Below, one piece after another: positions 8,555 to 43,537 of a stretch of DNA of 64,000 nucleotides. How positions within the stretch are numbered: position 1 is the stretch's first letter; each line of letters opens with the position of its first letter. The notes below the pieces were generated by a model. That model did no database searches and was not told the DNA's origin. It worked only from the letters and a program-made list of their open reading frames with translations. The stretch comes from an uncultured candidatus Brocadiaceae bacterium (GTDB lineage: Bacteria > Planctomycetota > UBA1135 > UBA2386). The position numbers and the translations under genes were made by a program. The stretch spans positions 1-64,000 of the forward strand of contig CAZABP010000022.1 in the NCBI GenBank assembly GCA_964483245.1, written 5' to 3'.

Positions 8555-8579
8555 AAAGGGTCTGACCCCTTTAGGATCA
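8555..8579. repeat. palindromic repeat GAAAGGGTCTGACCCCTTTAGGATC
   Basis: Same core (one G short) 5 nt upstream of the MFS ATG and 45 nt upstream of the ECF sigma GTG (divergent). Confidence 0.75.
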
Positions 8580-8583
8580 CCGC

Positions 8584-9774
8584 ATGCCGGGCGGCACGAC
8601 TCCGGACCGCGCGCTCGCGCTGATCTCGCTCGCGGTCCTGCTCGCGTCGGCGACCTGGTTCTCGGGGACGGCGGTTGCGCCGGAGCTCGCGCTGGCGTGG
8701 GGACTCGGGTCCGGCGGGAGCGCGTGGCTGACGTCGTCGGTGCAACTCGGCTTCATCACCGGGACGTTCGCGCTGGCGCTGTTGAACCTTGCCGACCGGT
8801 TCGATGCGCGGCGTGTGTTCGCGCTCTCGGCACTCGGCGGCGCCGCGGCGAACGCTGCGTTCGCGCTGCTGGGCGACGGGCTCGCGCTGGCGACGCTGTT
8901 CCGCTTTGCCACCGGGTTCGCGCTCGCCGGCGTCTATCCGGTCGGCATGAAGCTGGTCGCCTCCTGGTCCGCGACCGGCCTCGGCTGGCGGCTCGGGGTC
9001 ATGGTCGGCGCGTTGGTCGCGGGCACCGCGATCCCGTATGGCATCCGTTGGCTCGGCCTGGAGCTCCCGTGGCGCGCGACGGTGCTGGCCGCGTCAGCCT
9101 GCGCAATGGTTGGCGCGCTGGTCGTGTTGTTGCTGCCACATGGTCCACACCTGCGCGGACGCGCGGCATTCGCGCCCCGCATGGTCTGGCGCGTATTCCG
9201 GGATCCCGCGTTCCGGGCCAACTCGTTCGGCTACTTCGGGCACATGTGGGAGCTGTACGCGCTGTGGTCGCTGATCGCGTTCCCGCTGCAGGCTTCGCTC
9301 GGCGATACGACCGCGGTGCCGCTGCTCGCGTTCCTCGTGGTCGCCGCGGGAGTGGTGGGCTGTGTCGGCGGTGGTTGGCTGTCCCGCCGGATCGGCGAGC
9401 GGCGCACGGCGCTGTTCGCACTGATCGGCAGCGCATGCGCGTGCCTCGGCTCCGGCTGGTTGTTCGCGTGCCCACCTTGGCTGTTGATCCCGTGCCTGCT
9501 GCTGTGGGGCATGCTGGTCGTCGCCGATTCGCCGCAGTTCTCCGCGCTCGCGGCGCGCCTGTGTCCGCCGGAATACACGGCAACGGCGCTGACGATCCAG
9601 AACGGCATCGGCTTCGCGATCACGGTCGTGTCGATCCAGTGCGTCGCTTGGACCGCCGAACTGGTCGGCTGGCGTTGGGCCTTCCTGCTGTTGGCCCCTG
9701 GCCCATTGCTGGGCGCGGCGGCGATGATCCGCCTCGGCCGGCTCGTCCCGAGTACTCTCGGCGGCCCGCCGTAG
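8584..9774 (+). CDS. MFS transporter
   Basis: 396 aa, about 12 predicted TM helices, MFS-like loop motifs. Confidence 0.75.
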   Translation: MPGGTTPDRALALISLAVLLASATWFSGTAVAPELALAWGLGSGGSAWLTSSVQLGFITGTFALALLNLADRFDARRVFALSALGGAAANAAFALLGDGLALATLFRFATGFALAGVYPVGMKLVASWSATGLGWRLGVMVGALVAGTAIPYGIRWLGLELPWRATVLAASACAMVGALVVLLLPHGPHLRGRAAFAPRMVWRVFRDPAFRANSFGYFGHMWELYALWSLIAFPLQASLGDTTAVPLLAFLVVAAGVVGCVGGGWLSRRIGERRTALFALIGSACACLGSGWLFACPPWLLIPCLLLWGMLVVADSPQFSALAARLCPPEYTATALTIQNGIGFAITVVSIQCVAWTAELVGWRWAFLLLAPGPLLGAAAMIRLGRLVPSTLGGPP

Positions 9775-9802
9775 TGCGCCCTTCCGCTGCCCGGAGCAAC
9801 CC

Positions 9803-10273
9803 ATGGCCTTCGATCTACCCCTGCCTTCCTCCCTCGTCGCGGGCGCCAGTTCCGGCATGGAGTGGGCCTGGTTCGGGATCGCGGCGACGTTCGCGTTCGC
9901 GCTGCTGCCGTTCCTGATGTATGGGCTGCGCCGCCTGTTCGAAGGCCCCGCCGCGCGCGAGTTCGCGATCCTGGAGAAGGAACTGGCGCGCAAGGACCTC
10001 GATCCGGCACGCCGCGACCAGATCATCGACAAGATCGCCACGCGGGTCGCCACCCAGCGGCCGGGCACCTCGCTCGTGAGCCGGCTGATGGTGGGGGTGG
10101 GTTGGGTCGGTCTCGTGATCGGAATTGCGATCGCCTCGATGACCTACGGGAATGCCCAGCAGGGAGCGATCTACCTGGCGATCGCCGGTGGAACCCTGAT
10201 GACGCTGCCGTTCATCATCCGCGAGTGGGACCGCCGCAGCGGCACGGCGCAGGACACGAGCCCGTTCCGCTGA
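9803..10273 (+). CDS. small integral membrane protein (hypothetical)
   Basis: 156 aa, 3-4 hydrophobic helices, GC3-biased; sits between the MFS and type III PKS genes. Confidence 0.45.
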   Translation: MAFDLPLPSSLVAGASSGMEWAWFGIAATFAFALLPFLMYGLRRLFEGPAAREFAILEKELARKDLDPARRDQIIDKIATRVATQRPGTSLVSRLMVGVGWVGLVIGIAIASMTYGNAQQGAIYLAIAGGTLMTLPFIIREWDRRSGTAQDTSPFR

Positions 10274-10344
10274 GCGGCGGAATGGCCGCGCGGGCCGGGC
10301 CCCGGGCAGCCGCCGGCGCCTGAGCGTCGTATACCGCTGTCGGC

Positions 10345-11439
10345 ATGGACGAAGCCGGCACCGTGACGATCCCCTCGACCGCCCCCGCGATCGCCGCCGT
10401 CGGCGTGGCGCTCCCGCCGCACCGCTACCAGCAGCAGGAGATCCTGCAGGCGGTGCAGCAGATCTGGCGCGAGCATGCCGCCGAGATCCGGCGCCTCGGT
10501 TCGTTGCACGAACACACGCTGGTCGACGCACGCCACTTCGCGCTGCCGCTCGAGCAGTATGCCGAGCTGACGTCGTTCGGCCGCGCCAACGATGCCTGGA
10601 TCCGCGTCGCGCGCGAGCTCGGCGCGCGCGCGATGACTGACGCGCTCGCGCAGGCCGGTTTCGCTCCGCGCGATATCGATGCGATGTTCACGGTCAGCGT
10701 CACCGGGATCTGCAGCCCGTCACTCGACGCGCTGCTCAGCAACGATCTCGCGCTGCGGCCGGATCTGAAGCGCACGCCGATCTTCGGTCTCGGCTGTGCG
10801 GGTGGCGCAGCCGGGATCGCGCGTGCCGCCGACTACCTGCGTGGTGATCCGGACGGAGTGGCAGTGTTGCTGTCGGTCGAACTCTGCACGTTGAACTTCC
10901 AGCGCGACGATCTCTCGGTTGCGCACCAGATCGCGACCGGCCTGTTCGGCGATGGCGCCGCTGCGGTCGTCCTGGTCGGCGCGCGCCGTGCGCGCACGCA
11001 GCAGCCGCGCGTCGTCGCGACGCGCGCGCGTCTGTATCCCGACACCGAAGAGCTGATGGGCTGGCGCATCGACGAGCGCGGCTTCCGGATCCAGCTCCTG
11101 GCGGCCGTCCCGGACGTCGCGCGCACGCGCTTGCCAGCCGACGTCGACGGGTTTCTCGCCGAGCACGGTCTGCAACGCGCCGACATCGCTGCCTGGATCG
11201 GCCATCCGGGCGGACCGCGCGTGCTCGAAGCGATGCAGGAAGGGCTCGGGCTGTCGCGCGAGCAGCTCCGGCACGCGTGGGACGTGCTGCGCGAGACCGG
11301 GAACCTGAGCAGCACGTCGGTCCTGCTCGTGCTCGCGCGCGTGCTGGCGGAGCGAGCGTGGCCGCCTGGCGCACCAGCGTTGCTGTTCGCGCTCGGGCCC
11401 GGGTTCTGCGCGGAGTTGGCGCTGCTGCGCCGTTCGTAG
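10345..11439 (+). CDS. type III polyketide synthase (chalcone/stilbene synthase family)
   Basis: Active-site Cys in GLGCAGGAAG, His in GHPGGPRVL, Asn in GNLSSTSVL; about 364 aa. Confidence 0.8.
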   Translation: MDEAGTVTIPSTAPAIAAVGVALPPHRYQQQEILQAVQQIWREHAAEIRRLGSLHEHTLVDARHFALPLEQYAELTSFGRANDAWIRVARELGARAMTDALAQAGFAPRDIDAMFTVSVTGICSPSLDALLSNDLALRPDLKRTPIFGLGCAGGAAGIARAADYLRGDPDGVAVLLSVELCTLNFQRDDLSVAHQIATGLFGDGAAAVVLVGARRARTQQPRVVATRARLYPDTEELMGWRIDERGFRIQLLAAVPDVARTRLPADVDGFLAEHGLQRADIAAWIGHPGGPRVLEAMQEGLGLSREQLRHAWDVLRETGNLSSTSVLLVLARVLAERAWPPGAPALLFALGPGFCAELALLRRS

Positions 11440-11472
11440 CAGGGGTTCACGAATAGTGCGGGCTAGGATCTC
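11424..11472 (+). repeat. conserved 49-nt element, copy 2
   Basis: Spans the type III PKS stop codon and the 5' region of gene 11501-13567. Confidence 0.7.
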
Positions 11473-11500
11473 CCGCCGCCCGCGCCGCCCGTCGACCCGC

Positions 11501-13567
11501 ATGCGAGCCGTCAGTCCCCTGCTCCTGCTTTCCCTCCTCTCCGGAATCTGCGCGCAGGATCCGTCGCGCACGCCGGCGGCTGCCCGGGCCGCGCAGTTTC
11601 CGCCGGCGCTCGCCACGCTCGTCGACCGCTACGACTGCTGCCTGTGGATCGGTGATCCGTACCCGATCTGGCAGCGGATCCTCGGCTCGCCGCAGCTGCA
11701 GGAGCTCGCGCGACACCCCCGCGCAAGCGAGCTGCTCCGCAGCATCGACATGGACGTGCCACCGGAGCAACTCGTCGGACTCCTTCCGGTGTGGATGCCC
11801 TGGATCTCGGCCTGGATTCCGACCGAGACCGTCGTCGGCTTCAACGACGCGACGCTGGCGGATGCCCTGGAGCTCGCGACGGCCTGGGCGTTCGTGCAAG
11901 CTGCCGGAGCGGCGACTCCAGGCGAGCAGGAAGGTGCGCGGGATCTGCTCCGGCAGAGCGTCAAGCTGCTGCGTGCGCTCCGTGTTCCGACCGCACGGCT
12001 CGAGTTTCAGGCGCGCACCGAAGCGGTCGCGCAGAAGTGGTTCGACGATTGCGCGGACTGGCTCTCTGCTGACCCGGTACACGCCTACGTCGAGCTGCAG
12101 GAGCAACAGGACGAGCTGATCGTGGGGTTCCGGGTGGCCGAGTGGCTGCAGGATTCGCTCCGACGCGCCGCGGTCGGCCCGACGTACTTGCGCGCGCGGC
12201 ACTTGCTGGAGCCAGTGCGCCAAGCCGTTGCAGCGCTGCCGACCTGGCCAGGATTCGTCAGGCGCGAGGGCAGCCGCGTGCTGATCCAGATCGGCGACAG
12301 ACCTGCGGCCGTGCTGCCCGTGCTCGACTCGGACGTGGCCGAATTCGCGATCGGTCCACGGCCGTTGATCTGGGCCCGATGGAACGTGGAGGCGCTCGAC
12401 ATGGCACGCATCGATGTCGGGTACTGGATCAACAACGATATGAAGCCGTTGCGCGCCGAGCTCGTCGACCAATTCCTCGAGCAGGCAGAGTTGGGGCACG
12501 CGGTCGATCGGCTCCTGACGACGTTCGACGACCAGCCGACCGAGGGCGCAGTCGCAGTCCGGCTCGGACACGGGGTCGATTGCCGCCTTCGGTTCGCCGC
12601 GGATCCGGACAGTCCATCTGCGCGCACCACCATCGCTGTTGCCGGGCTGCTTCGGTTCGCGATACCGGACCTGCTGCATTCCGAGCTGGATGCCGTGCAG
12701 CCGCTGGACGAGTTCCTGCTCGAGGTCCGGGAGAGACTCGACGAGTTCTGGTGGGAACAGACTTCGCTCTCGTATCTCACGGCGTTGCAGTCGGAGAAGC
12801 TGCAGGCACTGTCCGAGGCGTTCGAGGCGCGGTGGGGACGGTTGCAGGAATACCTGGAGGCCGAGGAGTCGGCGGTGTTCGAGCGCGGCGCCGCACTCCT
12901 GGTGGCGACCGGCACGGAGCCGGCGGAGCTCGTCGTGGAGGGGGCCCGCGCACCGCAGCAGGACGCCGCAACCGCGCAGCCGCCCCGCACGACGTTCCGC
13001 ATACCGGGGGTCGCGCTGATCGGGATCCCGACCGACGTCGAGCAAGGCCATGCGTTCGCCGGTCACCTGGCGGCCGGAGTACGGCACGCGTTCGATCCCG
13101 CCGGACCGGTTCAGGCACCGGCCGCATGCGACGTCGGCCTCGGAGTGCCGACCTGGCAGCTGAACGTCGGCCCCTGCCAGATCGCGGGGCGCAGGTTGAC
13201 CCTCCACGGTTCCGATGCGGCGCCGCACTACTTCGTCGCCGATCGATACCTCGTGATCTCGAGCTCGATCTCACTGAGCCGCAGATTGCTCGCCGCGGCG
13301 AAGCCGGACGCCGTCGACTTCGACGATGCGCGTGCATATCGCGTGGATCGCAGCCAGCATCGGCTCCGCGCGTCTGCTGCCGCGGAATTGCGTGAGCTGG
13401 TTCAGCAGGTGGGGCGCGCGACAGACGGCTTGCAAGTCGAAGTTGCGCGGGCGACGACCGTACTGCAGGCCGTGGAGCTGTTCAGCGCGCTGTGCGCCGA
13501 CCAGCGCTCACGCACCTGGATCGACGGAACGCAAGGCTTTACGCGGTTCCTCCTCGAGCTGCGCTGA
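11501..13567 (+). CDS. secreted hypothetical protein (688 aa)
   Basis: Signal peptide MRAVSPLLLLSLLSGICAQ; balanced amino-acid composition, unlike the Arg-rich antisense ORF; no domain recognised. Confidence 0.5.
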   Translation: MRAVSPLLLLSLLSGICAQDPSRTPAAARAAQFPPALATLVDRYDCCLWIGDPYPIWQRILGSPQLQELARHPRASELLRSIDMDVPPEQLVGLLPVWMPWISAWIPTETVVGFNDATLADALELATAWAFVQAAGAATPGEQEGARDLLRQSVKLLRALRVPTARLEFQARTEAVAQKWFDDCADWLSADPVHAYVELQEQQDELIVGFRVAEWLQDSLRRAAVGPTYLRARHLLEPVRQAVAALPTWPGFVRREGSRVLIQIGDRPAAVLPVLDSDVAEFAIGPRPLIWARWNVEALDMARIDVGYWINNDMKPLRAELVDQFLEQAELGHAVDRLLTTFDDQPTEGAVAVRLGHGVDCRLRFAADPDSPSARTTIAVAGLLRFAIPDLLHSELDAVQPLDEFLLEVRERLDEFWWEQTSLSYLTALQSEKLQALSEAFEARWGRLQEYLEAEESAVFERGAALLVATGTEPAELVVEGARAPQQDAATAQPPRTTFRIPGVALIGIPTDVEQGHAFAGHLAAGVRHAFDPAGPVQAPAACDVGLGVPTWQLNVGPCQIAGRRLTLHGSDAAPHYFVADRYLVISSSISLSRRLLAAAKPDAVDFDDARAYRVDRSQHRLRASAAAELRELVQQVGRATDGLQVEVARATTVLQAVELFSALCADQRSRTWIDGTQGFTRFLLELR

Positions 13568-13581: not shown

Positions 13582-14091
13582 TCACGCGCTCGCCTGTTCC
13601 CGCGCCGCCTCACGCCGCTCCTCGAGCTGCACCGCCTGCTCGACGTCGAGATCGAGGCAGAACCGCGGCGCCGGGCGGAACCCTGCGTGGTGGAAGAACG
13701 ACAGCAGCCGTTGATCCTCCCACGACACCTCGGTCTCCAGCGCGCGGATCCCGAGCCCCTGCAGGTTCTGCAGCAGTTGCCGCAGCAGCGCGCGGCCGAC
13801 GCCGCGGCCGGCGAACGCCGGGTGCACGCCGAGGGTGTCGAGCACGGCGACCTGCTCGGTGGCGCCGAACTCACCGTAGTAGACGCGCGCCAGCAGGAAC
13901 CCGGCGAACGTGCGATCGACCACGGCGGCCAGCGAGACCTGGATCCCGGTGTCGGCCAGCGCGCGCGACAGCTTGTGACGGAAGAACTCCTCGCGCCGCC
14001 GCCCGGTGATCCGCGAGTCCAGCATGATCACGGATTCGAGATCGGCCTCGTGCAGGCCACGGACCAGGATGTTGTCGGTTTCGATCGCCAT
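13582..14091 (-). CDS. GNAT family N-acetyltransferase
   Basis: Acetyl-CoA binding motif (QVAVLDTLGVHPAFAGRGVGRALL); ATG at 14091; last gene of the coupled operon. Confidence 0.75.
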   Translation of the reverse strand: MAIETDNILVRGLHEADLESVIMLDSRITGRRREEFFRHKLSRALADTGIQVSLAAVVDRTFAGFLLARVYYGEFGATEQVAVLDTLGVHPAFAGRGVGRALLRQLLQNLQGLGIRALETEVSWEDQRLLSFFHHAGFRPAPRFCLDLDVEQAVQLEERREAAREQASA

Positions 14092-14099
14092 CGGACGCC

Positions 14100-14828
14100 T
14101 CATGCAGTGCATTGGCCGCCGTCGACGCGCAGCACCTGGCCGGTGACGTGCCGTGCGAGGTCGGAGCACAGGAACAGGATCGCGCGCGCGACATCGTCGG
14201 GGTCGCCGAGGCGGCCGAGCGCGGTCTCTTCGAGCGCCGTCGTGATCACATCGCCGGACAGGTCGCTGGTCATCGGCGTGCGGATCAACCCCGGCGCAAC
14301 CGCGTTGACGCGGATGCCGAACCGGCCGAGCTCGCGCGCGGCCGACTTCGCGAAGCCGAGCAGCCCGGCCTTGCTGGCGGCGTAGTTGGACTGGCCGAAC
14401 TTGCCGCGCTCACCGTTGATCGACGAAACGAGCACGGCCGCGCCGCGGCCGGCGGCGCGCATGCCCGGCACCAGTGCGCGCAGCAGCCAGAACGCCGAAT
14501 CGAGATTGACGCGCATGACCGCGCTCCAGTCCGCCGGACGCATCTTCCACAGCACGGCGTCTCGCGTGATCCCGGCACAGTGCACGAACAGCTCGAAGCG
14601 CTGCGGCTCCAGCTCGCTGCACAGCCGTTCGAGCGCCACGGGATCGCTCAGATCGCACGGCAACGGATGCGCGCCGGGCGGCGGCGTCAGCCCCGGGCGA
14701 TCGAGACTGGTGACATCGGCGCCGGCCGCGCCCAGCAGTGCCACGGTCGCGGCGCCGATGCCGCCGCTGCCGCCGGTCACCAGCGCCCGGCGTCCATGCA
14801 GCGACAGCAGTTCGCCCGGAGTGTGCAT
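14100..14828 (-). CDS. SDR family oxidoreductase (FabG-like)
   Basis: TGGSGGIGAA Rossmann motif, NAAS and YAASKAG catalytic motifs; ATGA overlap with upstream gene. Confidence 0.8.
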   Translation of the reverse strand: MHTPGELLSLHGRRALVTGGSGGIGAATVALLGAAGADVTSLDRPGLTPPPGAHPLPCDLSDPVALERLCSELEPQRFELFVHCAGITRDAVLWKMRPADWSAVMRVNLDSAFWLLRALVPGMRAAGRGAAVLVSSINGERGKFGQSNYAASKAGLLGFAKSAARELGRFGIRVNAVAPGLIRTPMTSDLSGDVITTALEETALGRLGDPDDVARAILFLCSDLARHVTGQVLRVDGGQCTA

Positions 14829-15688
14829 CAGCCGGCCCGCAACGGAACGCCGCGTTCCTGCAGCTTGCGCGCGCGGAACGCGCCCCACAGCGCGGCGCCG
14901 ATCGCGCCGGCCAGGATCGATTGCTCGTGGGCGACGATCTCGACTTCGGCGCCGAGTTCCTGCGCCGACTCCTGCAATGCCGCCAGCAGGCCGACGTCCC
15001 GCGCGAGTCCGCCGGTGATCAGCACGCGACCACGCGCCCCTAGTGACGTCAACAACCGCAGATAGCGTCCGGCCATCGACTGGTGGATCCCCTTGACGAT
15101 GTCCGGGATCAGCAGACCGCGCGAGACCATGTTGATGACGTCGGTCTCGGCCAGCACGGCGCAGATCGAAGAGCAGGCTTCCGGCTGCGCCGACTGCAAG
15201 GACAGCGGGCCGATCTCCTCGATCGTGACGCCGAGATAGCGGCAGATGTTCTCGAGGAACTGGCCGGATCCGGACGCGCACTGGCTGGTCATGCGGTAGC
15301 CGAGCACCTTCGCGCGCTCGTCCATCTGCACGGCACGGGCGTGCAGCGCGCCGATGTCGATGATGGAACGCGCCTGGGGGTCGAGGAACAGCGCGCCGCG
15401 GGCATGCGTCGTCATCCCGTAGAAGTGGCCGGTGCGGCAACGGACCGCCTCGCCCTCCCCCGTCGTCGCGATGTAGTCGAGTTCCGTCTGCGCGAGGCCG
15501 ACCTGCGCGAGCGCCGCCGCCAGCGCCTCGTCCGCCACCGCCAACGGGTCGCGCCGACGCAGGCGTTCGCAGTGGCCGGCCATCAGCGTCGCGCCGTCGC
15601 CGTCGTCCCGGACGAGCGCGACCTTGATCGCGCTCGACCCGACGTCGATGCCGGCAGTGAGCAGGACGTCATCACCCGCTCGGCTCAT
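14828..15688 (-). CDS. bcrD: benzoyl-CoA reductase subunit D-like ATPase (BadF/BadG/BcrA/BcrD family)
   Basis: 286 aa; acetate/sugar kinase-fold ATPase motifs ([21 protein letters not shown]); size and position match BcrD (about 282 aa) in a bcrCBAD order. Confidence 0.65.
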
Positions 15689-16995
15689 GTCGCAACCTCC
15701 TGGGCCGCTGGCTGCCGGCTGTCGCGCCAGGCGAACAGCGCGGCGCCGAGCGCGCCGGTGTAGATCGAGTCCGGTGAGATGTTCAGCGTGCGCTCGCCAT
15801 AGTTCTCGGCGACCAGTGCGCGCAGCGCCGTGACCGCCTCGGGATTCCTGGCGACGCCGCCGGTGAACGTGAACTCGTCGTGCACGCCGCCGGAACGCGC
15901 CAGCAGCGACATCGCGCGCAGGATGATCGCGCGGTGCAGCCCAGCGAGGATGTCCTCACGCTTCTCTCCGAGCGACAGACGTTCGCGCAGCTCGGCGCCG
16001 GCGAATACGGTGCAGGTCGAGTTGATCCTGACCTTGCGGGTCGCCTGCGCGGCCAGCGGTCCGAGCTCGTGCAGTCCGAGATTCATCTCGTCGGCGATGT
16101 AACCCAGATAACGGCCACAACCTGCCGCACAGCGATCGTTCATCTGGAACGAGGTGACGATCCCCTGCGTGTCGATCTGGATCGCCTTGGTGTCCTGGCC
16201 GCCGATGTCGAGCACGGTGCGGGTGCGCGGGTACATCTGGTGTGCGCCGAGCCCATGGCACAGGATCTCGGAGCGGATCCGCTTCTCCGGGAACGGCAGG
16301 CGCTGCCGGCCATAGCCGGTGCCGACCACGGCGGCCTGCTCGAGCTCGACCGCGGCCACGGCGTCGACGGCGCGTGCCAACGGCGCGGCCGGGCGGCCGA
16401 GCCGCCGCAGCGCGTCATGCGCCAGGTCGGCGAAGTCACCGATCGCCACCGTCGAGTTCTCGACGTCGAGGATCGCCTTGTCGAACAGCGCGATGAGCTG
16501 GTCGAAGCGGACGACCTGTGCACGTGCCTCGTCTTCGGCGAGCTCGACGTAGCGAGCGCCGGCAAGATCGCGGAAGAAGTCGCTCTTGCGCGATGCGCCG
16601 GCCGTGAACAGCGACGGTGCCTCGGCGGCCATACGGATGGCGATCCGCTCGACTGCCGCGCACACGGCGGCGCTGCTGCCGAGCCGAGCCGCCTGCCGGG
16701 CGAGGTCGCCGCGCAGCGCATCGAGCTGGGCGAGGTACTGGCCGGCGCGGAACGCGAGCTCGAACTCCTGCATCGCCGCCGCCCGCGCGGCGTCGCCCTG
16801 CGGTCCGAGCTGGGCCTCGATCAACGAGAACCGCGTGTTGACCAGCGCCTCGCTCAACGCGACGTTGCAGGCGACGTCGTAGTTGCTGCGGCTGTTGGTG
16901 ATTCCGCGGCCGAGCAAACGGCGTTGGTCGTCGAGCACGACCGCCTTGGTCGTCGTCGAACCGAGATCGATGCCGGTCGTGTAGCGCAGCTTCAC
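15685..16995 (-). CDS. bcrA: benzoyl-CoA reductase subunit A-like ATPase (BadF/BadG/BcrA/BcrD family, long form)
   Basis: GTG start overlapping upstream stop (GTGA); 436 aa; [15 protein letters not shown] and DIGGQDTK ATPase motifs; size matches BcrA (about 438 aa). The Arg-rich N-terminal 298 codons of the raw ORF were rejected. Confidence 0.65.
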
Positions 16996-18278
16996 GACGC
17001 ACCTCCGCCCGCCCGCTTCTGCTCGATCATCTGGAAGTACGATTCCAGCCGGTTCTTGATGTTGGACGCCGAGAAGTAGCGCGGATCCACCAAGTCGCTC
17101 TCGATGAATCCGCCGGGCCGGCCGGTGCGCGCTTCGACTTCGCGCAACATCATCAGTTGGCCGGCGCTGAACGAGTTGCAGCTCTTGACCGAGTTCACCA
17201 GGAAGCCGTCGGCGCGGTAGTCGTCGACGTATCGCGCCAGCATCGCGACCCGCGTCGGCAGGTTCAGGTTCGTGTAACACCCCATGCAGTAGTCGGCGAG
17301 CGACTCGAGCGGGCGCGCCGGGTCGTGGCGGAAGCCGTTGTCGTAGACGCCGCCGACCTTGGTGTAGGTCGAGGCGACGACGACCGCCCCCTCGTCGGCG
17401 AACATCTGCCAGAACTGTCGGAAGCTGGTCCAATTCGGCGGGCCTTCGACGACGAGGCGGTAGCGCTCGCGCCCGATCTCGCCGTCCGGCGTGATGGGAC
17501 CCTTGCCGGCGCGGGCGCGCTCCGTCACTTCCTCGCGCAGCTCGCGGTAGTAGTCGATCGCATCCTGCGTGCCGCGGAACGCCGTGAAGATCGGACCGAT
17601 GTAGTAGACGCCGCCGAAATACGCGTCGATCGGCGACGGCACCTGTTTCGCCGATTCGAGCACGTCGACGAGATGCTGTTCGGCACGCGCCGAGCGCGCC
17701 AGCAGCTCGCGCAGCCGGTCCTCGTCGTAGGCCTTGCCGCTGATCTGCTCGAGTGCGGGGATCACCTTCTTGCGCAGCTGATCGACGACGTAGCGGCGCA
17801 TCGCCGGCGTGATCTCGCCGTCCCCCTGATATGGCACGTGCAGCATCACGGTCGGCGCGCCGTACTCGAGTGCCAGGATCTCGAACCACTTCATGAACGT
17901 GAAGCAGCCGGTGTACGACAGCAACAGCAGGTCTGGCGGTGGCAGCCGCTCACCGGTCGGACCGACGTTGCCCGACTTCAACATGCCGACGTCGCACTTG
18001 ACGTAGGTGCAGACGTCCTCGGAGTGGCCGAGCTTCTCGGCCAATGCGATGTAGTCACGTGACTTGCCGCGCATCCCCGACTGCAGCGCGTTGATCTCCG
18101 GCAGCACCGGGAGCACGTCGAAGGCGGCCAGCAGCTCGGTCAGGTTGCCCGGTACGAACGTGTAGGCGCACTTGGCGCCGGTCTCCGGTGCGCGCGCGAG
18201 CCGGGTGAAGTGCTCGGCGATCATGCGCTTCTGCCGCTCCTGGCTGCGGTCCTTCTGCGCGGGAACAGGATTCGCCAT
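16992..18278 (-). CDS. bcrB: benzoyl-CoA reductase subunit B-like (HgdB/BcrB/BadE family)
   Basis: 428 aa; 2-hydroxyacyl-CoA dehydratase family; conserved Cys residues (CTYVKCD, YTGCFTF, CMGCYTN); ATG 2 nt after upstream stop, preceded by GGAGCGGAG. Confidence 0.65.
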
Positions 18279-18280
18279 GA

Positions 18281-19453
18281 CTAGACTCCGCTCCACAGCT
18301 TGATCGAGTCCGCAAACGTGCCGGCCTGCTCCCGGATCACCTGGAACTGCCCGGTGTTCTCACTGAACTTGAATGCGGTCCACGGGATGCCGGCGCGCTC
18401 GATCGCTCGCGTCGCCATCGGCTGGTCCAGCAGGGCGGGGTCGCAGAAGCTGGCGGCCGCGAAGATCACGCCTTCCGCTCCGCTCTGCCGCACGCGGTCG
18501 ACCAGTTCCTGCCCCTTGGAGTCGTCCGCGATGTAGCGGATCGGGCTCGCGACCGACTGGTGCAGGAACGCATCCACCAATGCGGCCAGCGGCTCGCCGT
18601 CCGTCCGGATGTCGCCGCGGATCCAGCGATGCACGAGGATCAGGTCGTCGTCGACGATGTAGCAGCCGGCACGCTCGAGGGTCTTGATCAAACCCAGCGG
18701 CGGCTGCTCGCAGAACGAACCGGTCAACACGACGCGCGCCTGGTCGAGCGGCCGCCGCGAGTCGTCCGCGGCGACGAGGGCGGCGTAGCGCTCGAGCAGG
18801 TCGAGATGTTCGTCGACCGGCAGGATCAGGCCGGCGCGCATCACGACGTACAGTTCGGCGGACGGCACCTTCCACGGCTGCTCGCGCCGCATCTGGTACA
18901 GCGCGTCGACGCTGCGGCGGTGGCGGTTGAACAGCGCGATGGCCTGACGCAGCGCCGTCGCCTCGAGCGGACGCGCGCCCCGCTCGGCGAGGTCGTGGCT
19001 GAGCTCGGTGAGCTCGTGCCGCCAGAACTCGCCGCCGATCGCTGCATCGAAGTCCTGCGGCACGTCGAGGTAGCGCACCAGCTTGGCCGGGAACTGCAGC
19101 TTCCACATCCCGGACAGGTTGCGGATCACATCGCAGGTGGCCGGGAACAGCATGCCGTCCAGACAATCGAAGCTGCCGTTGAGACCGAGCTCGATCGTGC
19201 TGCGCGGGATGTGGCAGATGTAGGACTGATAGAACGCGTCGCCGCGGATGATCTCGACGTCGTCGCCGCCGCCGGCGATGCCGACCGGGAGCACGCCCTG
19301 CGCCCACAGCAGTTCGCGCGGGGCGTAGACCGGCAGGTAGCCGACCGCGAGACCGTGCGTGCGCTGTTTCCAGGTGCGCACGGTGCCAAGCGTCAGGTCG
19401 CGCACGACCTGCTCGGCAGTGGACAACAGCGCCTTCAGCTCGCCCGCGGTCAT
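18281..19453 (-). CDS. bcrC: benzoyl-CoA reductase subunit C-like (HgdA/BcrC/BadD family)
   Basis: 390 aa from ATG 19453 (ATGA overlap); HGD-D family pattern (GYLPVYAPRELLWAQGVLPVGIAGG); size matches BcrC (about 386 aa). Confidence 0.65.
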   Translation of the reverse strand: MTAGELKALLSTAEQVVRDLTLGTVRTWKQRTHGLAVGYLPVYAPRELLWAQGVLPVGIAGGGDDVEIIRGDAFYQSYICHIPRSTIELGLNGSFDCLDGMLFPATCDVIRNLSGMWKLQFPAKLVRYLDVPQDFDAAIGGEFWRHELTELSHDLAERGARPLEATALRQAIALFNRHRRSVDALYQMRREQPWKVPSAELYVVMRAGLILPVDEHLDLLERYAALVAADDSRRPLDQARVVLTGSFCEQPPLGLIKTLERAGCYIVDDDLILVHRWIRGDIRTDGEPLAALVDAFLHQSVASPIRYIADDSKGQELVDRVRQSGAEGVIFAAASFCDPALLDQPMATRAIERAGIPWTAFKFSENTGQFQVIREQAGTFADSIKLWSGV

Positions 19454-20232
19454 GCGTGCCTCCATTGCGGTGGGCGCTTGTCCAGGAACGCCCGGATCCC
19501 TTCGCCGGCATCGGCGACATGCATCAGGTCCGTGCGGTACAGCTGTTCCGCCGCGGCCAGGTCCTGTTCGAAGCGCCGCGCGAAGCCGAGCCGCGCGGCG
19601 GCGACGGCGTAGCGCAGACTCGCAGCGGACAGCGGCAACAGGTGCCGTTCGCACCAGGCGAGCGCGGCAGCCCACGGATCTGCTGCAATCTCGTCGACCA
19701 GGCCACAGCGCAGCGCCTCGTCGGCGGTCATGGTGCGCCCGGTCAGCAGCAACTCGTCGGCGGCGCCGCGCGGCATGCGCTCGGGCAGCACGATCGAGCC
19801 GACCGGCGCGAACACGCCGAGCTTGATCTCCGGTTGGCCGAGGCGCGCATCCGGCGCGGCGATCAAGCGGTGTGCGAATGCGGCCAGCTCCAGCCCGCCG
19901 CCGAGGCACTGTCCGCGCACGGCTGCGAGTACGGGTACACGCGCGGCGAGGATCGCGCGGAACAGAGCATGGAAACCGGTCAGCATCGCGCCGACCTGCT
20001 CCGGCAGATGCTCTTCGACGCTGGCGCCGAACGAGAAGTGCGGGCCGTCCCCTTCGATGCAGACGGCGCGCAGGCGGGGAGCGGCCGCGGCGCGATGGAA
20101 CAGCTCGGTCAGCGCCCGCGTCATCGCGCTGTCCAGCACGTTGCCCTTGGGTCGCGCCAGCAGCGCGCGCCAGACCGACTCCCCGGCGTGCGCTTCGACG
20201 CGGACCGGCCCGTCCAGCACCGGCGCGGTCAC
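19450..20232 (-). CDS. dch: enoyl-CoA hydratase/isomerase family protein, dienoyl-CoA hydratase-like
   Basis: GTG start (GTGA overlap); about 260 aa crotonase fold (FSFGASVEEH, GQCLGGGLELA); size and position fit Dch. Confidence 0.55.
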   Translation of the reverse strand: MTAPVLDGPVRVEAHAGESVWRALLARPKGNVLDSAMTRALTELFHRAAAAPRLRAVCIEGDGPHFSFGASVEEHLPEQVGAMLTGFHALFRAILAARVPVLAAVRGQCLGGGLELAAFAHRLIAAPDARLGQPEIKLGVFAPVGSIVLPERMPRGAADELLLTGRTMTADEALRCGLVDEIAADPWAAALAWCERHLLPLSAASLRYAVAAARLGFARRFEQDLAAAEQLYRTDLMHVADAGEGIRAFLDKRPPQWRHA

Positions 20233-21335
20233 GACCCCGCCGCCGCCGCGTGCGCGGCATGCAGGATCTCTTCGGTCAGCGCCGCGTCCCAGCCTGCGCC
20301 CTCGGCGAGCCGGCGGCGCAACAGCAGGAAGTCCGCCTCGCGGCATTGCCGGCCGCCCTCGTGGAACGCGCGGAAGCCGGCGCGTCCCTCGGTCATCATG
20401 TTCAGTCCGAGCCAGGCGCGGTTGCTCTCGCGATTGCGGTCCCAGTGCGCGAGCTTGTGCTTGCGGACGCTCTCGATCGTCTTGGTCAGACAACCAGGCA
20501 TCGTCATCGCCAGCGACGTCACGAGCTGGTCGACCGCCTCGTCGAGCAGGCTCAGATCGATCTCGCCGAGCGAGACCAGCTTCTTCGCCGCAGCCAGCTC
20601 ACTGCCCTGCTTGAACTCGCCGTGCACGACCCGGCCGAAGTCGTCGGTCCATGTCTCGGTGACGACCATCGGGTTCGGCACGAAGCGTCCGTCGACCTTC
20701 AGCGCCGGCACGAGCCGCGTCAGCAGACCGAGCCGGTGTGCCTTGTGCGCGCTCCACGGCTCGCACAGCGCGCAGCTCTCCATCGCGCGTTCGATGCCGA
20801 CGAACAGCGGCAGGAAGTCGGTGCTGCCACCATCCGGCGCCGAGCCATGCTTCGGTCCGGCCTGCCCGAAAGTCGCCAGATCCTGCGCCAGCGAGAAGTC
20901 GCAGGCCATCCCGATCTCCTGACCACCCGCGATCCGCATCCCGTTGACGCGGCAGATCACCGGTTTGTCGCAGTGCAGGATCGCCGTCACCATGTCGTTG
21001 AACAGGCGCATGTACTGCCGGTACTCCTCCGGCCGGCCGGCGTAGTACTCCGCATACTCGGCAGTGTTGCCGCCGGTGCAGAACGCGCGCGTGCCGGCGC
21101 CGGTGAACACGACGGCGACGCAGGCGCGGTCGTTCGACGCGGCGCGCATCGCCAGGATCACGCCTTTCACCATCGCCGTCGTGTACGAGTTCAGTTGGCC
21201 CGGGTTGTCGAGCAGGATCCGCGTCGCGTGCAGGCCGTCGACCGGCCTGCCGGCGGGATCCCTGACCGGGAGCGGATCGATGCGGATGCCGCGTTGCTCG
21301 ACGCGGTCGACGAGATCGTGGTTCTTGTGGTCCAT
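20229..21335 (-). CDS. oah: crotonase-superfamily hydrolase, 6-oxocyclohex-1-ene-1-carbonyl-CoA hydrolase-like
   Basis: 368 aa, crotonase core plus C-terminal extension (length typical of ring-opening Oah/BamA-type hydrolases, about 377 aa); sits between the had-like and dch-like genes. Confidence 0.55.
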   Translation of the reverse strand: MDHKNHDLVDRVEQRGIRIDPLPVRDPAGRPVDGLHATRILLDNPGQLNSYTTAMVKGVILAMRAASNDRACVAVVFTGAGTRAFCTGGNTAEYAEYYAGRPEEYRQYMRLFNDMVTAILHCDKPVICRVNGMRIAGGQEIGMACDFSLAQDLATFGQAGPKHGSAPDGGSTDFLPLFVGIERAMESCALCEPWSAHKAHRLGLLTRLVPALKVDGRFVPNPMVVTETWTDDFGRVVHGEFKQGSELAAAKKLVSLGEIDLSLLDEAVDQLVTSLAMTMPGCLTKTIESVRKHKLAHWDRNRESNRAWLGLNMMTEGRAGFRAFHEGGRQCREADFLLLRRRLAEGAGWDAALTEEILHAAHAAAAGS

Positions 21336-21339
21336 GGGT

Positions 21340-22410
21340 TCAGTCCGGCAGCAGCACGACGCGCCGTGACACGCGGTGGGCGTGCAGGTCGGCGAAGGTC
21401 TGGTTGATCGAAGACAGCGGCCGGGCTTCGAGGAACGGGGCCAGCGCGACGCGGCCGCTGAGCACGAGGTCGAGCACGGCCGGGTAGTGCTGCGGCAGGC
21501 AGCCCCAGTTCCCTTCGGCGCGCGCGTCGAACGCCATCAGGTTGGACAAGCGCACGGAGACCTTGTCCGGCGTATAGCCGACGACCGACAGATAGCTGCC
21601 CGGCTCGAGCAGGCCGAACGCTGTCGTCTGGCCGGCCGCGGTCCCCGACGTCTCGAAGATCCGCACGCGCCAGGTCGGGATCCCTCGCTCGGCCAGCAAC
21701 ACGCGCACGCGTTTGCGCAGGTCGCGGAACTCGAGCTGATCGACGCGCCAGGTCGCGGCCGCGCCGTGCTCCTGCATCATCGCCAGCCGCTCGTCGCGCA
21801 CGTCGAGCGCCACGACGACGGCGCCGCGCGCCGCTGCGAGCTGTACGCCGAACCCGCCGACGCCGCCACAGCCGACGAAGATCGCGAGATCTCCCGCCGC
21901 GAGCTCACTGCGCTGGATCGCCTGGTATGGCGTCGTCACGGCATCCGCGATCACTGCCAGGTCCGCCAGCGCGAGACCGTTCGGATTGACGGTCCGGTCG
22001 TCGAGCGGGGGGACGCGACAGAGGCCATGCGCCGGCACGCGCACATGACTGGCGAAACCGCCGTGCACGTCATTGCCTGGGAAGATCTGCTTGCTGCAGA
22101 TCGAGCCGTGGCCGCTGGCGCATGCGGCACAGGTGCCGCACGGGATCACGGCGGGCACGACGACGGCGGTGCCGAGCCAGTGGTCCGCGCCGGATCCGGC
22201 CGTGACGACGCGGCCGCTGATCTCATGTCCCAGCGTCAGCGGCAGGGGATGCCGCGTCGGCACGCCGTCGTAGAAGAAGCCGAGATCGGTATGGCAGACG
22301 CCGCAGCCGGCGACTTCCACCAGGACTTCACCTGGACCGGGGGCTTCCTCGCGGTGAACGAGAGTCTGCGGCTTGCCCGGTTCGTGGACCGTCCAGGCGG
22401 CAACTTGCAT
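21340..22410 (-). CDS. had: zinc-dependent medium-chain alcohol dehydrogenase, 6-hydroxycyclohex-1-ene-1-carbonyl-CoA dehydrogenase-like
   Basis: GHEISGRV zinc motif, CGTCAAC structural-zinc cysteines, GCGGVGG NAD(P) motif; first gene of the operon. Confidence 0.6.
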   Translation of the reverse strand: MQVAAWTVHEPGKPQTLVHREEAPGPGEVLVEVAGCGVCHTDLGFFYDGVPTRHPLPLTLGHEISGRVVTAGSGADHWLGTAVVVPAVIPCGTCAACASGHGSICSKQIFPGNDVHGGFASHVRVPAHGLCRVPPLDDRTVNPNGLALADLAVIADAVTTPYQAIQRSELAAGDLAIFVGCGGVGGFGVQLAAARGAVVVALDVRDERLAMMQEHGAAATWRVDQLEFRDLRKRVRVLLAERGIPTWRVRIFETSGTAAGQTTAFGLLEPGSYLSVVGYTPDKVSVRLSNLMAFDARAEGNWGCLPQHYPAVLDLVLSGRVALAPFLEARPLSSINQTFADLHAHRVSRRVVLLPD

Positions 22411-22478
22411 CGATGCCTCCAGCGCGGGATCGGGGACGGCCCGCGAACCCGCGCTGGCGCGCTGAATTGCCGGCTCTT

Positions 22479-22496
22479 GCTGACGCGAGCGTCAGC
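22479..22496. promoter_or_regulatory. perfect palindrome GCTGACGC-GA-GCGTCAGC between the 11-heme cytochrome stop and the had-operon start
   Basis: 18-nt inverted repeat 24 nt downstream of the cytochrome stop and about 70 nt upstream of the had ATG; candidate operator or terminator hairpin. Confidence 0.4.
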
Positions 22497-22519
22497 CTGG
22501 CCGCAGCGCCGTGGTCAGG

Positions 22520-25288
22520 TCACGGCAGCCAGTTGCCGGCGCTGCCCTTGACCAGGCCGTCGGCGTCCAGCCACGAGTCGAGCACGATGCCGGTCGCCGG
22601 GTCGCTGAGCCGGCGGATCAGCGTCGCGCCGAGCGGGCCGGCGAACGTCGGGTCGGTTGCGCCGTCGCGCAGGTTCGGCACGTTCGGCACGACCATCGCG
22701 TGGTTGTTCGACGCGGTAGCGACGCCGGTCGGCAGCACGACGCGGTCCAGGTTGTAGTGGACGAGTGCCGGGTTGAAGCGCGTGTTCGGCGCGACATTGA
22801 ACGGCTGGCGGTTGGCGTCGCTGTCGAGCGGGTTGATCGGTCGGCCCTGCCGGTCGAACAGGAACAGACCGCTGCCGAGGCCGGCGACCATGTGCACCCA
22901 GATCGGCGAGTTCATCTGGTTGCCCGGATTCTGACCGATGTGCGATTGCAGCATCGTGAAGTCCAGGTTGCCGAAGTCGTTGTTCGCCATCTGCGTGCGG
23001 AACGTGCTGTAGATCCCGCTGTAGTTGGTCATGCCCTCGCTGGTCAGGTGGCACGCGACGCAATAGCGCGGTCCTTCATTGCTCGAAGTGACCTTGCCGC
23101 GGATCGAGTGCGCCAACATCGTGTTGAACCCCAGCGCCGGGAACTGCACGCCCGGATTGGCGCCGCGCCCCTCACGGTCGGAGAAGCAGAACACCTCCGA
23201 CCGCGCGTTGTTCAGGTCCTTGTATTGGAAGAACACCTTCGTGTTGGCGTTGAACTGCTCGATCTTGTTGTCCGGACCGACGCCGAGCTGGAACGGCACC
23301 GGTGACTGGTAGACGAAGTCGGCGTCCTCTTCCTCGAACACGATCCGCTGTCCGGTGATGTTCGAGAAGTTGTTGCCCTCGTCGTATTCACCCTGCAGGT
23401 GGCAGCCGATGCAGGTGTTGGTCCACGCCGAGTGGCACGACGCGCAGCTCATGTTGTCCATGTGGCTGAAACCGGCGGTGACGCCGCCAGCCTGCTGCGG
23501 GCCGATGCCGGTCGCCGCATTGCCGTCGGCGCGGCCCATCGAATACGACGCCTTGGCGCTGTAGACCGGCTGGTTCGTGAACGGGTGCAGCTTGCCACTG
23601 TCGACGACGACGTCCTTGGTCTGCACGACGAACAGGCGCCGGCCGCTGGTGCGGCTGGTCAGATACAGGTTGCCGTCCGCCTCCTTGACGACGTGGCGCA
23701 GCACCCTGCCGGCACCATCGAAGGCCATCTCCTTCTGTGTGCCGTCGTAGGCGGTGCCGACCATGGTCGGCGCATACGTGTCGACCTTGCCGTGGCACGA
23801 CTCGCAACGGATCTTGACGGCGTGCTCCATGCGGCTCGCGATCTGCTCGCCGTTCGGATCTCCGACGTCACCGCCGTGCACTTCGTAGCTGCCGTGGCAG
23901 TCGATGCAGCCCATGCCGGCCGCGTAGTGCACGTCCTCCGGCGTGTCGTCGCGGTTGTCGCCGTCGTAGTCCTCCATCAGGATGTACTGGTTCGCGTTGC
24001 GGCCGTTGAACGTGTTGTTGTCGACGACCGGATCGAACAGGCGCGTGTCGCGCGCGGTGTTGGTGAACCGGACCGGGTTGGCCGGGTACTGCACGCGGTT
24101 GCGCAGGTTTTGGTTCTGATCGAGGCGGATGCCCCAGTACTGCATGACCGTGCGGTTCGAACCCTGGTGGCAGCCGGCGCAGGTGTGGTCATCGATGCCC
24201 TCCTGCTGCATGCCGTTTGCCAGCGTTTTCTTGACGCTCAGGATCCGGTGCGCGCGCACGTGCGCGCGCTCCGGCTCGTCGATGTCATCCGGATCGATCG
24301 GTTCGGTCCGGTCGACGTTCGGGTCGCGGCTGCCGGTGCGCCCACCCAGGCTGTACGGCATGTGGCACGCCGTGCAGCCGGACGAGCGGTAGTCACCGGC
24401 GCGGTTGTTGGCGCCAGCGCTGCCGAGGTGGCAGTCACCGCAGGTGAATGCGATCTGCTCGTGGTACAGGTGCGCCAGCGGCGAGTTGCTGATCACGCTG
24501 CCGTCGGGATTCACGTCGTCGAGCAGCCCGGCCGCGTTGTAGGCCTGGTTGCGGAACATCCCCTGCCCCGGCGTGCCGCGCACGCTGTAGACCGGGTACT
24601 CCTTCAGCTCGCCGATCATGCCGAATGGCGCGGTCGCCGGGTTGAAGTCCGGGTCGACGACGGCGCGGAAGCCGAGGTCGTTCGCCGTGTCCAGGTACAG
24701 CCCGACGTGCGCCGGCAGGTGGTTGTCGTGGCCGGCCGCATACGTGGCGCCACCGAGGATGCCCATCTCGGTCGCCAGTGGACTGCCGGCGACGGAGTCG
24801 GCGTGGTTCTGGTGGCACTGCCCGCACGAACGCGCCTGCGTGACCACACGCAGGTCACCCGGCTGAATGAACTGCAGATAGTCGATCGCCGTGTACGTGC
24901 GCCCGTTGGCCGTGTAGTCCGGGAACTTGTCGATGCCGGCCAGAGTCAGCCGGTTGAAATACGCCAGCTGGTTGACGCGGAGGTTCTCGCGGTCGCCGAT
25001 CTGCGGCGGCGGCGGCACGTGGCTCTCCTCCTTCGTGGCGCCGTCCGGATTGCCGCCGTGACAGGTCGTGCAGGTCAGGTTGTCGGCACCTGGGAATGGG
25101 TGGGGGTTCTCGAGCCCCGGCCCGCTGTAGTCGTTGCCGGTCGACCCGTTGTGGCAGGTCATGCACGACTGCGCAGTCGAGGCGGAACCGTCCCGTCCGC
25201 CGCCGCTGCATGCGGCCAGCAGCGCGAATGCGCTGAGCGAAACGGCACGGAACCACGGAACGCGGAGACCGCGGCGCGGATTGCTCAT
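22520..25288 (-). CDS. multiheme c-type cytochrome lipoprotein (11 CXXCH)
   Basis: ATG at 25288; lipobox LLAACSGG; 11 CXXCH motifs (CMTCH, CTTCH, CGQCH, CGDCH, CTACH, CAGCH, CIDCH, CESCH, CASCH, CIGCH, CVACH); 922 aa. Confidence 0.8.
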   Translation of the reverse strand: MSNPRRGLRVPWFRAVSLSAFALLAACSGGGRDGSASTAQSCMTCHNGSTGNDYSGPGLENPHPFPGADNLTCTTCHGGNPDGATKEESHVPPPPQIGDRENLRVNQLAYFNRLTLAGIDKFPDYTANGRTYTAIDYLQFIQPGDLRVVTQARSCGQCHQNHADSVAGSPLATEMGILGGATYAAGHDNHLPAHVGLYLDTANDLGFRAVVDPDFNPATAPFGMIGELKEYPVYSVRGTPGQGMFRNQAYNAAGLLDDVNPDGSVISNSPLAHLYHEQIAFTCGDCHLGSAGANNRAGDYRSSGCTACHMPYSLGGRTGSRDPNVDRTEPIDPDDIDEPERAHVRAHRILSVKKTLANGMQQEGIDDHTCAGCHQGSNRTVMQYWGIRLDQNQNLRNRVQYPANPVRFTNTARDTRLFDPVVDNNTFNGRNANQYILMEDYDGDNRDDTPEDVHYAAGMGCIDCHGSYEVHGGDVGDPNGEQIASRMEHAVKIRCESCHGKVDTYAPTMVGTAYDGTQKEMAFDGAGRVLRHVVKEADGNLYLTSRTSGRRLFVVQTKDVVVDSGKLHPFTNQPVYSAKASYSMGRADGNAATGIGPQQAGGVTAGFSHMDNMSCASCHSAWTNTCIGCHLQGEYDEGNNFSNITGQRIVFEEEDADFVYQSPVPFQLGVGPDNKIEQFNANTKVFFQYKDLNNARSEVFCFSDREGRGANPGVQFPALGFNTMLAHSIRGKVTSSNEGPRYCVACHLTSEGMTNYSGIYSTFRTQMANNDFGNLDFTMLQSHIGQNPGNQMNSPIWVHMVAGLGSGLFLFDRQGRPINPLDSDANRQPFNVAPNTRFNPALVHYNLDRVVLPTGVATASNNHAMVVPNVPNLRDGATDPTFAGPLGATLIRRLSDPATGIVLDSWLDADGLVKGSAGNWLP

Positions 25289-25425
25289 GGTGGAACCCTC
25301 TTCCCTGTGGATTCCCGCGCGAGCTGACATCACGCGAGAATCGTGACGACGAAGCATACGCCGGTTATCGGCAGCCGGCCGCAGGTGTCTTGTTCTGCGA
25401 CGCCGCGCCGCTCTCGCAATGGGAC

Positions 25426-25487
25426 GCTTGGTGTCAGACTCCAACCCTCCCGAATCGGGAGGGATGGTGTCAGACTCCAACCCTCCC
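25426..25487. repeat. compound palindromic repeat (two TGGTGTCAGACTCCAACCCTCCC units around a CCCTCCC-GAATC-GGGAGGG hairpin)
   Basis: Direct 23-nt duplication plus nested inverted repeats; between the 11-heme cytochrome and AlkD-like gene starts. Confidence 0.8.
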
Positions 25488-25520
25488 ATGCCGGCGGGTC
25501 CTGCGGGCTAGACTCCGCGA

Positions 25521-43535: not shown

Positions 43536-43537
43536 GC

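Follow-up and report, generated by a model that had tools for sequence, protein, structure and literature searches.

The window analysed here is a 64,000-nucleotide (64-kb) stretch of contig CAZABP010000022.1 from an uncultured candidatus Brocadiaceae bacterium (Planctomycetota), with a G+C content of about 70%. At 13582-22410 it carries nine consecutive minus-strand genes that begin with the order had-oah-dch-bcrCBAD. Judged by their sequences, these genes very probably encode a class I, ATP-dependent benzoyl-CoA reductase (BCR) of the BCR type, also called the Thauera type, and hardly less probably the whole locus is best explained as the central benzoyl-CoA module of anaerobic aromatic degradation. 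To our knowledge, work on class I benzoyl-CoA reductases has been confined almost wholly to Proteobacteria. The window locus and about 80 syntenic relatives carry a complete Thauera-type central module, with its catalytic residues kept, in Planctomycetota-like and poorly cultured lineages, which adds to the organisms of soils, sediments and groundwater that are likely to degrade aromatics anaerobically. Earlier work has described class I reductase genes together with dch, had and oah in uncultured phyla such as the Krumholzibacteriota, for which a comparable point has been made (PMC10936416). The pathway is a known one in a less familiar host, and the result for the window is essentially a correct functional annotation; mildly new are the SDR and GNAT genes at the end of the cassette, which are conserved across phyla, and the lack of a linked ferredoxin gene.

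Gene order and family identity of the cassette

The original prediction had described nine minus-strand genes in series and given their positions and sizes. All nine open reading frames (ORFs) are confirmed and are uninterrupted (sizes in amino acids, aa):

21340-22410, minus strand: had, 356 aa; TIGR03201 (dearomat_had), Pfam ADH_N and ADH_zinc_N
20229-21335, minus strand: oah, 368 aa; TIGR03200 (dearomat_oah)
19450-20232, minus strand: dch, 260 aa; TIGR03189 (dienoyl_CoA_hyt)
18281-19453, minus strand: bcrC, benzoyl-CoA reductase gamma subunit, HGD-D fold, 390 aa; TIGR02263
16992-18278, minus strand: bcrB, benzoyl-CoA reductase beta subunit, the predicted carrier of the active site, 428 aa; TIGR02260
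15685-16995, minus strand: bcrA, long ATPase subunit of the electron-activating module, GTG start, 436 aa; TIGR02259, Pfam BcrAD_BadFG
14828-15688, minus strand: bcrD, short ATPase subunit, 286 aa; TIGR02261
14100-14828, minus strand: FabG/PhaB-like classical SDR, 242 aa; Pfam adh_short_C2 and adh_short
13582-14103, minus strand: GNAT N-acetyltransferase, 173 aa; Pfam Acetyltransf_1

The genes had also been said to overlap or nearly abut, and this can be read directly from the DNA. ATGA overlaps join dch to bcrC, bcrA to bcrD and the SDR gene to the GNAT gene; GTGA overlaps join oah to dch and bcrB to bcrA; bcrD and the SDR gene share a single nucleotide in TGATG; and gaps of 4 and 2 nt separate had from oah and bcrC from bcrB, respectively. 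Translational coupling of the nine genes can reasonably be inferred from these overlaps. GGAGG-like Shine-Dalgarno motifs are present 5' of had, bcrC, bcrB, bcrA and bcrD, and in Logan contigs that encode identical proteins, separate gene calls give equal lengths (356, 368, 260 and 390 aa) for the first four genes. The published order in Thauera aromatica is had-oah-dch-bcrCBAD-fdx. Up to bcrD the order in the window is identical and the subunit sizes match, as proposed; beyond bcrD, again as proposed, the window has an SDR and an acetyltransferase gene and no ferredoxin gene.

The identity of the seven core genes comes from NCBIfam equivalog models, against whose curated cut-offs each protein was scored. 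Pfam gives fold-level families only, here PF06050 twice and PF01869 twice, corresponding to two HGD-D-fold subunits and two BcrAD_BadFG ATPases. Had reaches 458 bits over its full length (cut-off 339), Oah 547 bits (cut-off 464; the second-best model, BadI, gives 112 bits), BcrC 500 bits (cut-off 421), BcrB 693 bits (cut-off 487) and BcrD 358 bits (cut-off 313). Dch, with 290.4 bits, is 2 bits short of its cut-off of 292.5, and the best generic crotonase model gives it 129 bits, 160 bits under its TIGR03189 score. BcrA, with 559.5 bits, is 19 bits short of its cut-off of 578 and covers positions 4-432 of the 432 of its model; it carries the BcrA-specific insertion of about 150 aa. Had and Oah thus lie above specific cut-offs and Dch far above generic models, and the three do not group with generic crotonases and alcohol dehydrogenases, a grouping that would have told against the original prediction. 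Each core protein covers essentially the whole of its family model, and none is therefore truncated. On the BzdN and BzdO models, BcrC and BcrB score 95 and 76 bits, respectively.

Comparison with characterised reductases points the same way. Against the reference sequences in the source data of Fuchs et al. 2025 (PMC11971306), BcrB and BcrC are 66% and 53% identical over their full length to the subunits of T. aromatica K172, 32% and 32% identical to MbdO and MbdN of T. chlorobenzoica, and 25% and 26% identical to BzdO and BzdN of Aromatoleum sp. CIB. Neighbour-joining trees were built of the two subunits and their counterparts in 80 related loci; they carry no support values, so that only their major split is relied on. 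In them the window falls in a Planctomycetota-labelled sub-clade of one compact clade that also holds T. aromatica, and MbdO/MbdN and BzdO/BzdN lie on separate long branches. The original prediction had named such a placement as a possible refutation of its reading, and the outcome favours the BCR assignment. The PDB holds no BCR-type structure; the best solved relatives are MbdONQP (9g87, 9gai), HadBC, BzdNO and the HgdC and HadI activators, MbdONQP being the best match for BcrB, BcrC and BcrA. The plasmid collection yielded no BCR-type homologue, only dehydratase-family matches at about 25% identity.

Cluster ligands and the proposed reaction sequence

According to the paper on the BzdNO structure, the catalytic [4Fe-4S] cluster of BzdO is bound by Cys95, Cys128, Cys380 and a water molecule, and Glu65 and His131 adjoin this water. 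In pairwise alignment, the corresponding residues of BcrB are Cys90, Cys125 and Cys367 for the three cysteines, Glu61 for Glu65 and Phe128 for His131. Residue 128 (window positions about 17895-17897, minus strand) is likewise Phe in T. aromatica BcrB, in 80 of 80 relatives and in MbdO of the 3-methylbenzoyl-CoA reductase (MBR); enzymes of the BCR and MBR types therefore cannot have a proton relay identical to that described for the BZD type.

The alignment of BcrC shows Cys80, Cys107, Cys248 and Cys337 in the four-Cys pattern of the MbdN type. Where BzdN has cysteines in its TMCTY and CPFC motifs, BcrC has Leu and Pro. As at least these two cysteines are missing, the BzdN-type six-Cys [8Fe-9S] site is not conserved, and a plain [4Fe-4S] cluster is expected. 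The BCR of T. aromatica holds three [4Fe-4S] clusters. In the ATPase subunits, BcrA has Cys289 in NDRCAAG and Cys328 in STCTVFA, motifs that align with NDKCAAG and TCTVFA of MbdQ, and BcrD has Cys137 in QCASG and Cys176 in SICAV, as aligned to the HadI activator (4eht). We take these two pairs to be the counterparts of Cys127 and Cys166, which bind the bridging cluster in HgdC. All the named ligands of the four subunits are invariant in 68-80 related loci (those of BcrB in 80 relatives, of BcrC in 78-80 and of BcrD in 68). A check of the conserved [4Fe-4S] cysteines, which the original prediction had recommended, thus finds every one of them in place.

These residues suggest how the enzyme may work. 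BcrA and BcrD would form an ATPase dimer with a bridging [4Fe-4S] cluster, which would take up a low-potential electron and, with the hydrolysis of ATP, push it into BcrBC. BcrC would hold the four-Cys [4Fe-4S] cluster and BcrB the active-site cluster with three Cys; the fourth ligand of the latter, which is water in the structure of BzdO, would deliver hydrogen to the ring together with Glu61. The expected product of BcrCBAD is cyclohexa-1,5-diene-1-carbonyl-CoA; Dch would hydrate this dienoyl-CoA, Had would oxidise the hydrated product, and Oah would open the ring to give 3-hydroxypimelyl-CoA. An electron donor (ferredoxin with its reductase), a CoA ligase and the remaining enzymes of beta-oxidation must be encoded outside the window.

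Related loci, the genes after bcrD and alternative readings

BcrB has thousands of environmental homologues. Its closest named relatives are from metagenome-assembled genomes (MAGs) of Planctomycetota, with up to 87% identity, followed at 70-82% by Acidobacteriota, Gemmatimonadota, Eisenbacteria, Krumholzibacteria, Myxococcota and a few Proteobacteria. Synteny was mapped by tblastn over 80 GTDB loci, 62 of which include enough downstream DNA for counts of the SDR and GNAT genes. The full had-oah-dch-bcrCBAD order is present in nearly all of the 80, and of 71 related loci, 61 have dch between oah and bcrC. After bcrD comes an SDR gene, a GNAT gene or both in most of the related loci of Planctomycetota, Acidobacteriota, Gemmatimonadota, Eisenbacteria, Krumholzibacteria and Myxococcota, and a ferredoxin-like ORF occurs within 10 kb in only about 2 of the 80. 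As cassettes that lack fdx and have SDR and GNAT genes recur across loci, these traits belong to a large cassette group and not to one genome.

The SDR has intact TGxxxGxG and YxxxK motifs, and in NCBIfam and the PDB it matches 3-oxoacyl-ACP and acetoacetyl-CoA reductases best. The FabG/PhaB-like family interconverts 3-oxoacyl and 3-hydroxyacyl thioesters, and the product of Oah is 3-hydroxypimelyl-CoA. An orthologue of the SDR (47-68% identity) is encoded directly 3' of bcrD in 43 of the 62 loci. In gammaproteobacterial relatives, bcrD is followed by a gene for an acyl-CoA ligase fusion and then by one for a FadB-type 3-hydroxyacyl-CoA dehydrogenase, and two myxobacterial relatives have a different SDR downstream of bcrD. 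The simplest reading, which we give about an even chance, is that the SDR is a 3-hydroxypimelyl-CoA dehydrogenase. Probably co-translated with the reductase, it would then catalyse the first step of the lower pathway, in which 3-oxopimelyl-CoA is formed by oxidation of 3-hydroxypimelyl-CoA.

The GNAT gene is present in 45 of the 62 loci, in 34 of them together with the SDR gene. BadL of Rhodopseudomonas palustris, a GNAT encoded in the bad cluster, acetylates aminobenzoates, and the acetylated compounds make the Rrf2 repressor BadM come off the reductase operon; Magnetospirillum and Geobacter are reported to have GNAT-Rrf2 pairs too (PMC6191541). Among the relatives of the window locus, an Rrf2 regulator gene lies directly 3' of the terminal GNAT gene in 22, a pairing that resembles badL-badM. 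We tentatively propose that the GNAT of the window is a small-molecule acetyltransferase like BadL, a reading somewhat less secure than that of the SDR. It would acetylate a small aromatic amine, and the product would act as effector of a repressor encoded outside the window. Alternatively, the GNAT may acetylate a lysine of an acyl-CoA ligase. The recurrence of the GNAT-Rrf2 pair suggests that a switch of the BadL/BadM style, based on acetylation of small molecules, may be widespread.

An insert of about 0.45 kb separates oah from dch in 22 of 71 loci and, where examined (e.g. in locus L002), is a second, paralogous GNAT gene. This second GNAT (L002 7549-8013; also L008, L013, L017-L019 and L021) is about 34% identical to the terminal one, and is lacking in the window and in its closest relatives (L003, L004, L006 and L007). 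A hemerythrin-domain protein, which may be related to the sensing of O2 or NO, is encoded 3' of the GNAT gene in about seven loci (L003 14674-15117 and six others). In nine loci (L009, L020, L025, L028, L044, L046, L068, L077 and L079) dch is missing from the cassette and oah abuts bcrC; the hydratase must therefore be encoded elsewhere or replaced in those genomes. Seven loci (L012 816-2192, L013, L045, L049, L051, L056 and L071) have a gene for a beta-eliminating lyase of the tyrosine phenol-lyase/tryptophanase family a few kb from the cassette, which hints at aromatic amino acids as a carbon source.

The consistent replacement of the ferredoxin gene by an SDR gene and one or two GNAT genes raises the question of the electron donor in these organisms. 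One could go further and propose that the BCR-type cassette exists in a distinct variant, had-oah-[GNAT]-dch-bcrCBAD-SDR-GNAT-[Rrf2], widely transferred and spread over at least six mostly uncultured phyla, that has no dedicated linked ferredoxin and takes its electrons from a different donor, and in which acetylated aromatics made by the GNAT are obligatory to the control or the function of the pathway. We consider this stronger proposal unlikely. If it were true, ATP-dependent ring reduction in soils and sediments would be common among Planctomycetota, Acidobacteriota and their neighbours, with a wiring unlike that of the proteobacterial models.

Several points weigh against reading the locus as a central benzoyl-CoA module. 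Only five of the seven core genes pass their cut-offs, dch and bcrA lying just under; the trees are without support values; and the substrate proposed for the SDR is taken from gene context only. The 64-kb window contains no small 2[4Fe-4S] ferredoxin ORF of the CxxCxxCxxxC type and no gene for a benzoate-CoA ligase, 2-oxoglutarate:ferredoxin oxidoreductase (KGOR) or glutaryl-CoA dehydrogenase. It also contains no Rrf2 or TetR regulator gene, and a BadL-like circuit is therefore incomplete here. As ligase, KGOR and ferredoxin genes are lacking, only the central module is encoded in the window. The pathway had been called complete, which is correct for the steps from benzoyl-CoA to 3-hydroxypimelyl-CoA and too broad for the rest, the ligase, the electron donor and the lower steps of beta-oxidation lying outside the window. 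A linked ferredoxin gene is a trait of the model clusters (fdx, badB) and not of the enzyme itself.

The same gene set could serve a BCR-type aryl-CoA reductase for a substituted analogue, such as methyl-, hydroxy-, amino- or halobenzoyl-CoA, with the crotonases and the alcohol dehydrogenase acting on a substituted ring. The 4-methylbenzoyl-CoA pathway of Magnetospirillum pMbN1 is a parallel, analogous route; such parallel pathways have Dch, Had and Oah paralogues of their own, and linked dch, had and oah therefore do not fix the substrate. The shortfall of BcrA and Dch on their equivalog models would agree with a substituted substrate, as would the associated GNATs, which point to aromatic amines as ligands. 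However, BcrB and its T. aromatica counterpart have identical motifs around the active-site ligands, the window has a single such cassette, and BcrB is 72-87% conserved over many phyla, as expected of an enzyme for a central hub substrate. We therefore regard a substituted substrate as quite improbable.

Still less probable is that the host acquired the benzoyl-CoA module horizontally, as an island that is silent or does not function there for want of a ferredoxin, a ligase and a regulator. The lack of partner genes within 64 kb would fit such an island, as would the unrelated flanks, with multihaem cytochromes and a type III polyketide synthase, and the variation of the flanks among relatives of a cassette that is common across phyla. 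But the nine ORFs are intact and of full length, their G+C content at third codon positions (0.81-0.88) is like that of the flanks, the ligands are conserved, and the view of the genome is limited to 64 kb. Dozens of genomes keep this architecture without a linked ferredoxin gene, an argument for purifying selection and for a donor encoded elsewhere.

The original prediction had held the BCR-specific assignment provisional, and the notion that the genes encode a 2-hydroxyacyl-CoA dehydratase and its activator (HgdAB/HadBC/FldBC type), and no arene reductase, which would draw on the common folds and Pfam families (PF06050, PF01869) and on HadB/HadC and the HadI and HgdC activators among the PDB matches, is refuted by scores of 158 and 164 bits for BcrB and BcrC on the HadB and HadC models (cut-offs 750 and 700), as against 693 and 500 bits on their own, by the identities to T. 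aromatica, above all that of BcrB, and by the trees; the two different ATPase subunits, one with the BcrA-specific insertion, and the adjoining had, oah and dch also speak against it.

Surroundings of the locus and comparison with known systems

Upstream of had lies one further feature of the locus:

22411-22519, minus strand: probable promoter/operator region, 109 nt between had and the stop of a cytochrome gene at 22520

It contains a perfect 18-nt palindrome, GCTGACGC-TC-GCGTCAGC, at 22479-22496, 86 nt upstream of had, which could be an operator or a hairpin that ends the cytochrome transcript. No sigma-70 consensus was found in the 109 nt, and a scan for promoter and terminator consensus sequences gave nothing useful. 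The relatives share no conserved operator upstream of had and have lineage-specific palindromes only; that of the window is not conserved at this place, the sole loose similarity being GACGC...GCGTC in L014. Four proteobacterial and myxobacterial loci (L063, L066, L075 and L081) have a TetR regulator gene between dch and bcrC and the palindrome AACGAACGTTCGTT upstream of had, at about -61; theirs is a regulatory solution other than that of the GNAT/Rrf2 versions.

The flanking genes are unrelated to aromatic catabolism and include planctomycete-like FG-GAP/ASPIC genes. Genes of electron-transfer type are found at 22520-25489, 28846-29559, 31216-33720 and 33285-35651 on the minus strand and at 37469-40762 on the plus strand. 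Together they encode three multihaem c-type cytochromes (11, 7 and 23 CxxCH motifs), a fusion of a Fer4-dicluster with an FAD/NAD(P) oxidoreductase, and a ResB/CcsA fusion for cytochrome biogenesis, and they look like a set for extracellular or periplasmic electron transfer. No link of these genes to the reductase was found in the relatives. The 11-haem cytochrome (22520-25489), which is encoded on the same strand as the cassette, was considered as a member of the operon and rejected: it is syntenic in no relative, and the 109 nt with the palindrome precede had. The Fer4-FAD oxidoreductase (33285-35651) was likewise rejected as the electron donor; it lies 11 kb off among cytochrome genes, with nothing to link it to the cassette.

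On the other side, a gene for a secreted-looking protein of 703 aa without Pfam or NCBIfam match (11456-13567, plus strand) converges on the GNAT gene, with 14 nt between the stops. It is preceded at 8575-11439 (plus strand) by genes for an MFS transporter (weak match to an aromatic-acid symporter), a 156-aa ORF without family and a type III polyketide synthase (DpgA-like, 199 bits, under the cut-off), possibly a small phenolic-lipid or polyketide cluster beside the aromatic-degradation operon. Beyond the cytochrome genes, at 42051-43541 and 43538-45013 (minus strand, 4-nt overlap), are genes for a CoA-transferase of the acetyl-CoA hydrolase/transferase family and a two-domain PPK2 (polyphosphate:AMP phosphotransferase). 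The PPK2 has one close database relative, at 79%, followed by matches of about 55% from mixed phyla; with relatives so sparse, the lineage appears poorly sampled, and the gene gives no guide to the taxonomic place of the host.

Of the characterised systems, the cluster of T. aromatica K172 is alike in its order from had to bcrD, its subunit sizes, its place in the same tree clade and its identical motifs around the BcrB Cys and Glu ligands. It differs in having fdx after bcrD, where the window has the SDR and GNAT genes, and in its host, that of the window being an uncultured high-GC bacterium with a cassette closest to those of Planctomycetota MAGs. The badDEFGAB system of R. palustris also encodes a four-subunit reductase of the BCR type, with a GNAT gene inside the catabolic cluster, and the succession of GNAT and Rrf2 genes in 22 relatives of the window locus is that of badL-badM. 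Unlike the window, however, R. palustris uses BadK, BadH and BadI in place of Dch, Had and Oah, and its operon includes a ferredoxin (badB) and a ligase (badA) gene; the window has neither of these, nor an Rrf2 gene.

The enzymes of the other types are more distant. MbdONQP, the 3-methylbenzoyl-CoA reductase of the MBR type, shares the four-Cys pattern of the gamma subunit and the Phe at the position of BzdO His131, but is only 32% identical, stands on a separate long branch and has two short ATPases (269 and 273 aa), as against 436 and 286 aa here. BzdNOPQ, the BZD type of Aromatoleum sp. CIB (PDB 8s02), shares the fold and the ligation of the active site by three Cys and Glu in the O or B subunit, but identity falls to 25-26%, the six-Cys site of BzdN is not kept in BcrC, and His131 of BzdO is Phe128 here. 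HadBC and HgdAB with their activators HadI and HgdC share with the window proteins membership of the BCR/HAD radical enzyme superfamily and activator ATPases of the ASKHA type with a bridging cluster; the window proteins score far lower on their models, their activator is a homodimer where BcrA and BcrD would form a heterodimer, and the genomic context of the window genes is one of ring degradation.

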